DNA of 64,000 bases, from the IMG/VR virus record IMGVR_UViG_3300031088_000793. One strand, written 5' to 3'. Numbering within the stretch: the first letter of the stretch is position 1; each line of letters begins with the position of its first letter. Of the stretch, positions 655 through 38,357 are shown one piece after another. This stretch comes from a virus (Duplodnaviria > Heunggongvirae > Uroviricota > Caudoviricetes). The notes under the pieces are model-generated. The model was not told the DNA's origin, did no database searches, and saw only the letters and a program-made list of their open reading frames with translations. Both the position numbers and the translations under genes were made by a program.

Positions 655-1236
655 CTACTCGCTGAGCCGAAGCTTCTTCAGGATGGGCTCGATCTTCTCC
701 CGATCCACCCGGATGTCGCTCTCGCTAGCGTGGATGTCGCTGAGGGTGATCTCCCCGGTCTCCTCAGAGATCCAGAGAGTGAAGGATTCCTCGATGACCT
801 CACCGCTCTGGTCGAAGCTTCCCTGGAGGCCGAAGCGGAGGAAGCGGCCCTCGGTGTCCTCGTTCTCAGTGTCGAGGCTGAGATCGTAGTCGGTGATCTT
901 CCGCAGCGTAGCAGTGTGGAGAGTGTCCACGAATTCCGTGCCTCGAAGACCGCTAAAGTCCCGGCTCTTGAGCTCAGTGGTGAGGTCAACTGACTTGAAG
1001 CTCTGAGCGAAGGGGATGTCGGAGCCGTAGGACGATTTTGCCGCAGTCTGAGCGGCATCGGGCCGGGTCTGAGTGTTCGAGAAGAGGTCCTCGCTCATGG
1101 TGCCCTCGTAGTTGGCCCGGGCCTCAGCGGCTGTTGCTCCGTGCTGGCTGTCGCTCTGGCCGAAGCGGCACTGAACCTCTGCGCTGCACTTGCCAGTGCG
1201 GCCAGTGGTGGGGTTGAAGTGGAAGCGATCAGCCAT
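655..1236 (-). CDS. HCCH-module protein 1, unknown acidic C-terminal domain
   Basis: N-terminus MADRFHFNPTTGRTGKCSAEVQCRFGQSDSQH is nearly identical to 12932..13744. SD AGGAG. Confidence 0.85.
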   Translation of the reverse strand: MADRFHFNPTTGRTGKCSAEVQCRFGQSDSQHGATAAEARANYEGTMSEDLFSNTQTRPDAAQTAAKSSYGSDIPFAQSFKSVDLTTELKSRDFSGLRGTEFVDTLHTATLRKITDYDLSLDTENEDTEGRFLRFGLQGSFDQSGEVIEESFTLWISEETGEITLSDIHASESDIRVDREKIEPILKKLRLSE

Positions 1237-1310
1237 GGGATCTCCTAGATTCGAGCTGCGGGGATGCTATGGGTCTACTTCTAATCGCTGAACCCTAGAG
1301 ATACTCCAGC

Positions 1311-1598
1311 TCAGAACCAGCGAGCGTTGAACTTCCAGCAGGGCTCAGTTCGACCCTCGGAAGCCGTCGCAGAGATCACCTTCCAGCCCACCGACCGGTA
1401 AAGCGAGGCAACCTGCTCCATCTCAGCCAGGAAGTCTTCCCGGCCCACGGGAGTGAGCGAGCTTCGGAGCTCCGACTCGCAGATCGCCACGGTGACTCCC
1501 GGGCTGGCCTTGAGGAATCCGTTGATCGAGTCGAGGAGCTCGTCCTGGAAGCTGTTCTCCGAGAAATGCTCGACCTCCGCTGGGCTGATTGCTGGCAT
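1311..1598 (-). CDS. Hypothetical protein (95 aa)
   Basis: ORF with SD-like AGGAGA upstream. Confidence 0.7.
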   Translation of the reverse strand: MPAISPAEVEHFSENSFQDELLDSINGFLKASPGVTVAICESELRSSLTPVGREDFLAEMEQVASLYRSVGWKVISATASEGRTEPCWKFNARWF

Positions 1599-1642
1599 CC
1601 TGATCTCCTTCGATTCTGCGGTGAATGCTCACCGTACCGAGC

Positions 1643-2146
1643 CTAGACAGCCATGAGCTCCTGCGCCTCACGCCAGACATCTTCGCAGAGAGCGAGATAC
1701 TCGTCCGCCTCTGCGGGGTCACCGAAGCACCGGCGAAGCTCGGCCTCCACCAGAGCGATGTCGTCGTGGCCAGGCTCAGTGGATGAGCGCAGGCTGTAGG
1801 CAGGGTCAGTGCGCTGGATCACTCCCGGCCGGTAGCCCTCGCCGTGGTCGAACTGTCCCCGGGACCCGTCGAGGATCCAGCCCGAGGTGGTCTCGATCCA
1901 CCAGTGAGCGTGCTCACCCTGCTCATCCCGGTAGATGCCGTTGGCGAGCTTGTGGCCGATCTCCAGATCGAGGAGGATGTGGCTGATGAAGGCGCTCACG
2001 CCGAGGCAGACTCCGGCGCCTCCGCCCCAGTAGAAGTCGGTGTCGTGGCGGATCAGGTCCGCGGCAGTAGCCACAGCGTGGAGCTCCCGGGGGAGATGAG
2101 CAGGAGGCCAGGATGTCGAGCCATCGCTGAGCGAGGAGTTTTCCAT
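1643..2146 (-). CDS. Papain/transglutaminase-fold (Cys-His-Asp) protein
   Basis: GVC...HAHWW...WILDGSRGQF pattern. Leaderless promoter TTGCGC-N17-TAGCAT. Confidence 0.6.
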   Translation of the reverse strand: MENSSLSDGSTSWPPAHLPRELHAVATAADLIRHDTDFYWGGGAGVCLGVSAFISHILLDLEIGHKLANGIYRDEQGEHAHWWIETTSGWILDGSRGQFDHGEGYRPGVIQRTDPAYSLRSSTEPGHDDIALVEAELRRCFGDPAEADEYLALCEDVWREAQELMAV

Positions 2147-2181
2147 GGGCCCATGCTATGTGGCCACTGAGCTGAGCGCAA

Positions 2182-35988: not shown

Positions 35989-36057
35989 AGGAGCATCCTA
36001 CACGAAGCACCGACTCGGCACAACCGGAGCGCCTAGCTGTCAGCGCTCCCATTCTAG

Positions 36058-36573
36058 CTAGTGATCGTTGGAGTATTCGGAGAACAGAACCTTCGGGCTC
36101 TTGGACTCTGGATCGTCGAGTCTAACCGTGATCTCGTGGCCAGAGGAATCCCTTGCCTGAGCCTCATTGCCGTCGGTGAGCTCATCGACTTCGGCAGACT
36201 TTAGCTCTAGTTCGTAGTTGCTCTCGAAGAATTCCACAACCGCTACTCGATAGCTTTCCCTTGCTGCCTCCCTCTCAGGTCGCTGAGATTCACCCACGAT
36301 GGCGACCCCGCCGAGCCACAGCAGGGAGAGACCCACGAAGGATACTACAGTGATTATCTGACCCCTGACTCCTCGCTTTACTCGGTCCCGATTATTCTCT
36401 GATCCGGCAACGGCTGTCCTGGCTGCAAAGACGAGGAACACAGCAAGGCTTCCAAGGAGGGTCGCAAGGAAGATCAACATGAAGATACCCGCTGCACGGG
36501 CATCGGCAGACGGGATTTCGTAGACGGGGAACATGGCGGTCCTATTCTGGCTGATCAGCATGGTTGCTTTCAT
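36058..36573 (-). CDS. 2-TM membrane protein, paralogue of 38416..39051
   Basis: Y..AV......Y..EL....D...G....A....G.......D..S. Confidence 0.75.
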   Translation of the reverse strand: MKATMLISQNRTAMFPVYEIPSADARAAGIFMLIFLATLLGSLAVFLVFAARTAVAGSENNRDRVKRGVRGQIITVVSFVGLSLLWLGGVAIVGESQRPEREAARESYRVAVVEFFESNYELELKSAEVDELTDGNEAQARDSSGHEITVRLDDPESKSPKVLFSEYSNDH

Positions 36574-36621
36574 CCTATCGAGGAACGCTAGAGCTACACA
36601 GATGCCGACAGCATACGCTGT

Positions 36622-36858
36622 TCAGCTCAGATTGAAGATCAGGGGTACTGCGAAAATTGCCACCACCGAGAGCCCCAGAAGGCTCAGCGAGAGAGCGAGG
36701 TAGAAGCGCTCAGCCCGTCTCAGGTAGCCTCGCTGAGCTCGAGGGCCTCGGCCGCGCTTCGAGTCCATGGCCCGGATGTAGAAGATAGCCACAGCGAGCT
36801 GGGGGAGCCCCACGATGGCTACGAGGATCACCGGAAGGAGCTCTGAGGCGGTGGGCAT
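36622..36858 (-). CDS. Small 2-TM membrane protein
   Basis: Leaderless TAGCAT, two hydrophobic helices. Confidence 0.75.
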   Translation of the reverse strand: MPTASELLPVILVAIVGLPQLAVAIFYIRAMDSKRGRGPRAQRGYLRRAERFYLALSLSLLGLSVVAIFAVPLIFNLS

Positions 36859-36896
36859 AGCCCCATGCTAACGCTCTATGGTTCTCCCGGCAACTC

Positions 36897-38357
36897 TCAG
36901 TTGCCCTCGGCGCTTTTCTTGCTACCTTCGGCGGCGAGGAGTGCCCAGGTACCGAGGGCCCAGCGGCGAACCTCCTGGCTTCGAGTGGAGCCGTCATAGA
37001 GGTACTCGTTGCCCGACAGTGAGGGGTAGAAGATACCCTCGGTGGCCCGAGTGAAGACCTCCTTGCCACCCACATCCCCCATGTACTCGTCGGGGAAGCC
37101 AGCGTAGCGGCTGTAGCCATCCTCCTTGAGCTGAGGCTGTGAGGCTGAGAGCTCCTGGAAGAGCTCACGCTCCCGGGGGATGCCGCCGGGCCGGGCAGAC
37201 TGGATGGCGTGGCTGAACTCATGGAGGAGCACGGGGCTCTGAGACCGGCTGTCTCCTCCATAGCGCTTGGTGCCGATGGTGTGATCCCGGAAGCTCAGCT
37301 TCTTCTCCTGAACCTCGTAGAGGTCCAGGGGCACTCCGTAGCTCTCGCCCCGGGAATCCTTGAGCTCGAAGCCCGTGGCCACCCTCCGGTAGCGCTTCCC
37401 TCGAGCGATGGCTCCAGTGGGCTTCTTGCCAGCGTAGAAGCTGGAGACAACTGCCGATCCCTCTGCTGACTCCAGGAGCTCTGGAGCGAGCTCCCGGAAG
37501 CGCTCTGCCTGGCCTGGGAGGATCACTCCATCCGCGTCCAGGACATTCTTCTGGATGAGCTCAAGGTGTCGAGCATCTGCCCGGGTCTGCCGGATGGCAT
37601 GGAGCACGCTGTCGCCGTCCTGGAGAGGCTCTCCCACGCCGCGCTCAATCCGATCCACAGCGAAGCCCTGGAGATTCTCGTTCTCGATCTCGTGGCGTAG
37701 AGCGATGGAGGAGTCCACCACGAGATCTCCGCGCTTGGCCACCGGACCGATCTTCATAGAGCTCTTGGATTCAACAGCCGATGGTGCCATGACAGCAGCC
37801 TGCTGGATGTGGAAGCCATCCCGGGAGCTGTTCCGAGCGTTCACCGTCTCTGTGTGGACATCCCCGTAGACCAGATAGGCTGCGCCGCTGGGCATGGGAG
37901 CCAGGGCCTCCTTGAGCTGCTTAGCGAAGGTGCCATGGAACTTGCTTCGGAGTGCTACTGGGCTGCCCTGGAGCTCCTTGAGCACTGCAGACGCTGTGCT
38001 GCCGAGCCTGTCGAGCTCCGCGCTGGTAAGGTCCTTCCGGTCCACCTCGATCCCGGCCCGACTGAGGAGCTCGTCCTCGATGAGTCCACCGATGCGCTGC
38101 AGCTCCTTGAGATCGGGAGTCTGTCCTGCCGCCAGGGTCTGCAGCTCTGCCCGAAGGCTGCTCAGAGATCCCGCGCTGGAACCCAGAGCGTCGAGGCCCT
38201 GGCGCTCCATGAGCTCTCCGTAGGCTGCCTCAGCTTCTGCCTCCGTGGCGTAGTGGCCGCCAGCGCCGTAGGGGCAACCTCGAGCGCCTGGCTTCGAGGG
38301 GTCGGCGGAGCAGGGAGCTGGTCCATCGGGAGTGAGATGGATCTGTCCCTTGGCCAT
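36897..38357 (-). CDS. HCCH-module protein 4 with C-terminal zincin metallopeptidase
   Basis: HLTPDGPAPC..GCPYG..HY, then VLLHEFSHAIQ and downstream EVFT. Confidence 0.8.
   Translation of the reverse strand: MAKGQIHLTPDGPAPCSADPSKPGARGCPYGAGGHYATEAEAEAAYGELMERQGLDALGSSAGSLSSLRAELQTLAAGQTPDLKELQRIGGLIEDELLSRAGIEVDRKDLTSAELDRLGSTASAVLKELQGSPVALRSKFHGTFAKQLKEALAPMPSGAAYLVYGDVHTETVNARNSSRDGFHIQQAAVMAPSAVESKSSMKIGPVAKRGDLVVDSSIALRHEIENENLQGFAVDRIERGVGEPLQDGDSVLHAIRQTRADARHLELIQKNVLDADGVILPGQAERFRELAPELLESAEGSAVVSSFYAGKKPTGAIARGKRYRRVATGFELKDSRGESYGVPLDLYEVQEKKLSFRDHTIGTKRYGGDSRSQSPVLLHEFSHAIQSARPGGIPRERELFQELSASQPQLKEDGYSRYAGFPDEYMGDVGGKEVFTRATEGIFYPSLSGNEYLYDGSTRSQEVRRWALGTWALLAAEGSKKSAEGN

Follow-up and report, generated by a model that had tools for sequence, protein, structure and literature searches.

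A conserved N-terminal module with variable C-terminal payloads in huge uncultivated phages, and a motif upstream of its genes

Polymorphic toxins and polyvalent proteins combine a conserved N-terminal trafficking domain with variable enzymatic C-termini. The capsid-targeting signal of phage T4 is a short unstructured peptide of about 10 residues, which is removed by the head protease. In Iyer et al. (2017, PMC5512222), polyvalent proteins are described as very long chains with 2–15 effector domains, and T4 Alt, the T4 internal proteins and the MuF toxins are summarised. The present analysis concerns a stretch of 64,000 nucleotides of the virus record IMGVR_UViG_3300031088_000793 (hereafter “the window”, meaning the whole stretch at its full length), in which four dispersed genes encode proteins beginning with the same module of about 50 residues, marked by two histidines and two cysteines in the order H-C-C-H. 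The module is new to the family libraries and defines a large unnamed protein family of huge phages, and its genes are preceded by a TTAGA-type motif. The explanation favoured here, to which slightly less than an even chance is given, is that the module serves as a common docking handle on co-regulated intracellular effectors.

Compared to the described systems, both similarities and differences have been identified. As in polymorphic toxins and MuF-fused effectors, a constant N-terminal domain is followed by a linker and by unrelated enzymatic C-termini (ADP-ribosyltransferases, peptidases and nucleases) that shuffle independently. In contrast to these toxins, the module matches no MuF, LXG, PAAR, RHS, TPS or other secretion-linked Pfam domain (150 members searched, and the module alone at E<=10); many paralogues are dispersed in one genome instead of forming alternative tips at one locus, and some of the fusions are stable orthologues. 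The T4 capsid-targeting sequence, found in the internal proteins and Alt, is likewise an N-terminal element common to otherwise unrelated host-directed phage proteins. Unlike this peptide, the module is predicted to be a folded, probably metal-binding domain of 50 residues, and its genes share the upstream motif with DNA-metabolism genes. The enzyme repertoire overlaps with that of the polyvalent proteins (ART-PolyVal, 2H-SAK, zincin metallopeptidase, papain-like peptidase), and one of the window proteins, P0003, has two payload domains. However, the module proteins mostly carry one payload each, and the variety is spread over many genes sharing the tag. The repeated unit is here formed from the motif and a protein-coding module of about 150 nt, which is under protein-level selection at GC contents from 35% to 62%. 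Judged by sequence comparison, the module family would belong to none of the three systems (polymorphic toxins, T4-type capsid-targeting signal, polyvalent proteins), since none of the domains that define these systems is matched by the module and no connection with delivery machinery has been seen.

The module: sequence, distribution and predicted fold

The four proteins had been proposed in an earlier, sequence-only reading of the window; their coordinates, location on the minus strand and stop-free translations, as well as the common H-C-C-H module, have been borne out. P0001 (655..1236, 193 aa) consists of the module at residues 1–50 (window 1087–1236) and a C-terminal domain of unknown kind, and it matches no Pfam or PHROG family. 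P0002 (12932..13744, 270 aa) is built of the module (window 13595–13744), a variable Ala/Pro-rich middle and a conserved C-terminal domain of about 60 aa. In P0003 (20382..21398, 338 aa), the module (21243–21398) is followed by an Ala/Pro linker and by two domains, A and B, and in P0004 (36897..38357, 486 aa) the module (38193–38357) precedes a helical middle and a C-terminal zincin-like domain. An AGGAG-type ribosome-binding site is located 6–9 nt 5' of each ATG. The alignment of the first ~50 residues revealed eleven positions invariant across the four proteins (M1, A2, H6, P9, C17, C23, G26, H32, A39, Y43 and M47) and two module subtypes; the modules of P0001 and P0002 share 66% identity, whereas P0003 and P0004 have a six-residue insert between both cysteines. 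A hidden Markov model of the four sequences, run with filters off against all six-frame open reading frames (ORFs) of the window, matched only these four proteins (E 1e-30 to 7e-23, next best 0.09), and a regular-expression scan of the window gave the same result. In all four proteins the module leads into an Ala/Pro/Ser/Gln linker of low complexity, and the body beyond it differs from protein to protein. These bodies are unrelated; P0002 and P0003 fall into separate BLAST clusters, and P0001 and P0004 into neither. Small ORFs are located downstream of each of the four genes, among which, ORF conservation not having been analysed, no obvious immunity gene was noticed.

A module profile of nine sequences was scored against 1.84 billion protein cluster representatives (clusters at 50% identity). 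It recovered 1,722 protein clusters at E<=1e-3 and 94 at E<=1e-10, and the module is therefore not a chance resemblance. The module-bearing proteins are 61–536 aa long. In 124 of 158 sequences the module begins at residue 1, and in all but two it begins within the first 10 residues. Across 142 diverse modules, both His, both Cys and one Ala never vary, and N, P, G, A and E show at least 90% conservation; the consensus of these sequences reads x-(Y/F)-H-x-N-P-x-T-G-x3-C-x-A-x3-4-C-(R/P)-(F/Y)-G-x3-6-H-(Y/F)-x-(S/T)-x2-(E/D)-A-x2-A-Y-E-x2-M. Exceptions in arrangement comprise two proteins with a tandem double module, one with the module near the C-terminus and several with little beyond the module. 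The existence of stand-alone and tandem modules indicates that the module probably acts by itself.

The module had not been recognised as a named domain, and the searches of Pfam, NCBIfam, PHROGs and PADLOC agree. No Pfam match was obtained for the four full proteins (E<=1) or for ten isolated modules (E<=10), 150 full-length members share no family in Pfam, NCBIfam or PHROGs, and PADLOC gave no match for the module. The module profile has no match among the PDB chain sequences. No description was found in the literature searched, including passages of two Aravind-group papers, and no such module appears in the 12 of 27 passages of Iyer et al. (2017, PMC5512222) that were covered.

The module family belongs to huge (0.3–0.8 Mb), uncultivated phages of wide GC range, in which it is present in multiple copies. 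Three IMG/VR records, each 100% complete according to CheckV, carry 4 copies (G001, 398 kb), 10 copies (G002, 309.5 kb, GC 35%) and 20 matches, of which about 12 are unique (G003, 437.6 kb, 437,576 bp, loci L049–L077). In the outer ~107 kb at each end of G003 the module matches are mirror images, the coordinates of the pairs summing to 437,577. Either giant inverted terminal arms or a fold-back assembly is indicated, and since the arms are inverted copies, the arm module counts were halved. The JGI contig encoding P0052 (L035, 828 kb, GC 56%) has nine copies within 21 kb. Six of its module genes stand in an unbroken row (L035:8678-15073), the densest array of the family seen, and Macro, ClpS, GmrSD_N, N6_N4_Mtase and Peptidase_M23 genes are found near the array. 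Orthologues of P0004 are located on contigs of 193 and 573 kb, and proteins of the window are on record on a 673-kb metagenomic contig. Elsewhere the module is rare. A tblastn search with the modules of P0142, P0033 and P0002 gave no match in 50,697 GenBank phage records, Bacillus phage G has no module, and a single-protein search with P0003 in IMG/VR found no match. A degenerate DNA pattern for K[YF]HINPxTG, the most frequent spelling of the motif but a single, narrow one, occurs in 26 stretches among 185,579 species genomes, 4 of which are true modules. All four lie on contigs of metagenome-assembled genomes (MAGs), three on contigs of 2.9–3.9 kb from one MAG and one on a 23-kb Clostridiales contig.

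This distribution bears on the notion that the module is a transfer signal of a conjugative element and that the window represents a giant plasmid, not a phage. Actinobacterial plasmids use an FtsK/SpoIIIE-type ATPase for DNA transfer, and a P-loop ATPase of the FtsK/SpoIIIE family is encoded in the window (47493–48449, minus strand) amid otherwise unnamed genes. However, tblastn of the P0002 module found no match in 72,556 plasmids, all classifiable long module contigs are IMG/VR viral records with CheckV completeness of 100%, and the Atlas clusters resembling the module are 100% Viruses where taxa are known. A conjugative role is thereby considered very improbable. Searched by megablast against phages and plasmids, a 20-kb part of the window found no match.

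The structure of the module was modelled with AlphaFold2 from the 142-sequence alignment (mean pLDDT 83, pTM 0.62). It is predicted to be a beta-hairpin, a loop and one helix, with strands at residues 5–8 and 13–16 and the helix at 36–53. The putative ligands are placed in strand 1 (first His), just past strand 2 (first Cys), in the loop (second Cys) and just ahead of the helix (second His). Because the H-C-C-H set is invariant and the setting is cytoplasmic, the module most likely binds one zinc ion through these four residues. The zinc-binding character supposed at the outset is thus plausible in view of the invariant residues and the confident beta-beta-alpha model, the site itself being a predicted one. 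In fold searches with the module model, none of the Foldseek matches reached E<=0.001 (best E 1.4 in the PDB, 0.5 in BFVD and 0.8 in the AFDB clusters), and the best Z of VIA-align among 48,161 chains was 3.0. The top three BFVD rows are uncharacterised proteins of one metagenomic siphovirus and are probably members of the module family. A Kunitz/BPTI fold was rejected, the respective fold-search rows having E>1 and being taken as chance.

The beta-beta-alpha topology of the model, with four metal ligands, would also suit a small zinc finger for DNA or RNA, which would tether the payloads to the nucleic acid of host or phage. Nucleic acids are the substrates of several payloads (GmrSD_C, RNase_T, Rv2179c-like, 2H phosphoesterase), and the weak BFVD rows, all at E>0.9, are rich in HNH proteins sharing this shape. 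However, the mean net charge of the module is –0.25, with a slightly basic first half and an acidic helix (–2.0), and such a near-neutral charge speaks against plain nucleic-acid binding. Moreover, peptidase and acetyltransferase payloads need no nucleic-acid anchor. The named zinc-finger and zinc-ribbon families of Pfam gave no significant match to the module (four proteins, isolated modules at E up to 10, 150 members), and no fold match exceeded Z 3. A nucleic-acid-binding finger is for these reasons regarded as improbable.

Payloads behind the module

A constant N-terminal module with unrelated, swappable C-termini had been claimed for the window, and this architecture has been found to extend over the family, as the C-terminal parts of 151 representatives form 95 BLAST clusters. 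The largest cluster (24/151 representatives) has in common the ~60-aa C-terminal domain of P0002, and the second largest (7 members) includes P0003. The payloads were named through Pfam on 150 members, only about a dozen of which obtained a Pfam name. ADPrib_exo_Tox and GmrSD_C were identified in two members each, and ART-PolyVal, 2H-SAK, RNase_T, Rv2179c-like, GNAT, TelA, YunG and DUF7448 in one each. The PHROGs annotation of a payload is “Alt-like RNA polymerase ADP-ribosyltransferase”. Taken over the whole family, the payload kinds are ADP-ribosyltransferases, HNH-type and DEDDh nucleases, a 2H phosphoesterase, GNAT and zincins. In P0006 (L001:3560-4288) the module is placed on a different body of 190 aa, in which a pattern R...S-x-T...Q-x-E like that of R-S-E ADP-ribosyltransferases was noticed by eye; it was not confirmed by Pfam.

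P0003 possesses two separable payload domains, and P0001, P0002 and P0004 appear to have one each. Domain A (about residues 62–215, window 20754–21215, minus strand) occurs alone behind the module in P0005, P0092 and P0147, and domain B (residues 221–338, window 20385–20738, minus strand) is located directly behind the module in P0079 and P0120. The papain fold proposed for the first of these domains is at most suggested by its invariant N-C...H...D pattern. For the second, an ADP-ribosyltransferase (ART)/Tpt1 fold had been proposed, and structural neighbours providing a lead in this direction have been found. The neighbours of domain B among the Atlas models are DUF952, PTS_2-RNA, Pertussis_S1/Scabin and DUF7002 (TM by hit 0.31–0.56), together with unnamed clusters of 110 aa (0.80–0.84). 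DUF952, RNA 2'-phosphotransferase, Pertussis S1/Scabin-like proteins and DUF7002 are taken here to be ART-type folds by established classification. The residues H, Y and E of domain B are conserved in three sequences. Domain B has no Pfam or PDB sequence match, neither domain A nor the zincin tail of P0004 has a PDB sequence match, and the single-sequence AlphaFold model of P0003 has a pLDDT of 37.

The zincin motif HEFSH of P0004 (residues 379–383, window 37209–37223, minus strand) was confirmed as a conserved feature, HE[FY]xH being invariant in 14 homologues down to 35% identity, 13 of which keep the module. P0004 has no Pfam match. By its Atlas features, the body resembles ATLF (lethal-factor-like)/Peptidase_M78 zincins at 0.89, a value below the level for a call and taken as a lead. 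The swapping of payloads thus holds for part of the family; the P0003 domains are shuffled, but other payloads, such as the P0004 zincin, are stable orthologues. The family mixes stable orthologous fusions with shuffled ones.

Some of these payloads are typical of injected effectors (ADPrib_exo_Tox, ART-PolyVal, Alt-like ADP-ribosyltransferase, lethal-factor-like zincin), and they raise the alternative of a module that targets proteins to the capsid. By this means the payloads would enter the head and be injected along with the DNA, and the module may be clipped by the prohead protease; such a role would resemble that of the T4 capsid-targeting sequence or the MuF fusions. The strictly N-terminal position followed by a flexible linker fits such a role, and a MuF minor-capsid cluster is among the Atlas structural neighbours of the P0004 body, at a TM of only 0.41. 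On the other side, stand-alone and tandem modules would make no sense if the module marked cargo, and no conserved cleavage-type motif follows the helix. A prohead-protease site at the conserved A-Y-E was considered and rejected, as the Glu of P0003 and P0004 stands one position later (AYG-E) than in P0001 and P0002. Together with the genomic evidence described below, capsid targeting is judged unlikely, at about one half of the weight given to the docking handle.

The upstream motif and the possible role of the module

On its two strands together, the 64-kb window has four copies of the hexamer ATTAGA. All four copies lie on the coding strand 35–51 nt upstream of the ATG of P0001–P0004, in the context (C/G)ATTAGA(N)AG, and none of the remaining ~100 window genes has ATTAGA at that upstream position. 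On the minus strand, the copies are located at 1280..1285 (49 nt upstream of the P0001 ATG), 13790..13795 (51 nt, P0002), 21428..21433 (35 nt, P0003, GATTAGATAG) and 38390..38395 (38 nt, P0004, GATTAGATAG). The P0002 copy follows just past a terminator-like hairpin of the upstream gene, GC-rich and ending in T residues (13797–13830, minus strand), and P0002 therefore looks like its own transcription unit.

A TTAGA-type motif has likewise been identified ahead of module genes in six other phage contigs with GC contents of 35–62%. In the GC-rich relatives L095 and L096, ATTAGA is found at –49 and –47 of the module gene, and GTTAGAAAG lies about 30–35 nt ahead of the ATG of P0006 (L001). In L035, TTAGA(A/T)A at –30 to –42 precedes 6/9 module genes compared to 1/18 others (Fisher p=0.0017); the other three module genes closely follow the preceding gene. 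In G002, T(T/A)TAGA(A/G/T)A at –80 to –15 precedes 7/10 module genes compared to 12/305 others (Fisher p=9.5e-8), and in G001 and G003 the motif is visible ahead of nearly every module copy.

Among the twelve motif-bearing non-module genes of G002, ten were annotated. Thymidylate synthase, topoisomerase II and two homing endonucleases are among these ten, which contain no recognised structural gene. The sharing of the motif with DNA-metabolism genes points away from late, packaged proteins and argues against capsid targeting, as does the location of the module genes amid small accessory genes instead of beside head genes. No support has been found for the proposal of the sequence-only reading that cargo is directed by the module into virions or towards conjugative transfer, given this company and the empty plasmid search.

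Considering its position, its enrichment and the company of the co-motif genes, the motif may be a promoter element of the –10 type that serves a class of early or middle genes, with a phage sigma factor as its probable reader. A sigma-70 region-2 protein above the Pfam cut-off is encoded in each of the three complete genomes (G001:C1:293851-294036, G002:C1:55094-55303 and G003:C1:42779-42967), and these phage sigma-70 family proteins are candidate readers of the TTAGA-type motif. A SigA-type promoter was rejected for the four module genes of the window, as the TTGCGG box lies upstream of none of them.

The docking-handle explanation would combine these elements as follows. Each module gene or short operon would have its own –10-like element 30–55 nt ahead of the ATG, spelled TTAGA(N)AG in the GC-rich phages and T(T/A)TAGA(A/G)A in the AT-rich ones, and probably read by the phage's own sigma factor. 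The module proteins would then be made as one set inside the infected cell, alongside nucleotide-metabolism and replication genes. Each would consist of a zinc-held module, a flexible low-complexity linker and a gene-specific payload, and through the module a wide range of enzymes would be gathered at one partner, which may be a hub of the host or a structure built by the phage. The conserved promoter-plus-module cassette may additionally supply homology for payload exchange. A more far-reaching form supposes a dedicated effector regulon, in which the phage-sigma promoter (TTAGA) and the zinc-bound tag travel as one cassette. By means of the tag, as many as a dozen or more different enzymes of a genome would dock at a single hub, be it a machine of the host, for example RNA polymerase or the ribosome, or a compartment or particle built by the phage. 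This form is possible, though rather unlikely in its entirety.

Several points weigh against the docking handle and its timing. The strictly N-terminal position would be equally expected of a packaging or export signal, and the Alt-like ADP-ribosyltransferases and lethal-factor-like zincins belong to payload classes typical of virion-injected proteins. The Pfam models Terminase_6N, Terminase_6C and HK97 capsid gave no match in G001–G003, which indicates that the terminase and capsid genes have diverged too far for these models to find them. The promoter, sigma and timing readings are drawn from motif position and from the annotation of ten co-motif genes in one phage.

Co-regulated genes and an extreme N-terminal place would also be compatible with a regulatory or turnover tag, i.e. 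an N-terminal degron or a zinc- or redox-sensitive switch, by which a set of early effectors would be shut off or destroyed together. A ClpS gene is located ~5 kb from the nine-gene array of L035, an anecdotal observation. A folded, highly conserved domain of 50 residues exceeds the needs of a degron, and this explanation is considered quite improbable, more so than the zinc finger.

Genomic setting and significance of the module family

The window (GC 62%) contains ~105 short, tightly packed genes, almost all on one strand, with hardly any family matches. The exceptions named by family are an RNase_T exonuclease (8369–9091, minus strand), an R2K-clade ATP-grasp protein (43735–44613, minus strand, amid otherwise unnamed genes), the FtsK/SpoIIIE-family ATPase mentioned above and a 456-aa protein with a bacterial Ig (Big_7) domain and a right-handed beta-helix (59544–60914, minus strand), possibly a depolymerase or tail-fibre-type protein. 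No portal, terminase or conjugation genes were seen near the module genes among the ten large ORFs scanned. A few kb separate the exonuclease gene from the P0002-type module gene upstream of it. The same synteny of both genes occurs in the relatives L095 (L095:14063-15472) and L096 (L096:12995-14097), in each of which a META-domain gene is next, so that local synteny is conserved among these GC-rich relatives and the window.

Metagenomes of the phyllosphere, plants, straw and leaf litter, sampled in many studies, contain DNA near-identical or closely related to window positions 12500–22000. Four metatranscriptome runs yielded contigs that map to the same region, including P0003. These contigs constitute weak evidence of P0003 transcription, as DNA carry-over is possible and contigs give no strand, ends or level.

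Huge phages encode hundreds of genes of unknown function. Since the tag is present in more than 1,700 protein clusters and in as many as a dozen or more genes of a genome, it would allow the host-directed enzymes of these phages to be recognised simply from sequence, and it would offer a handle for finding their targets. The linked motif provides a testable regulon and a candidate recognition site for phage sigma factors, and the family is rich in new variants of ADP-ribosyltransferases, peptidases and nucleases along with many unnamed folds. If the more far-reaching form of the docking reading is true, the regulon and the tag together would represent an undescribed viral counterpart of effector translocation or docking signals.

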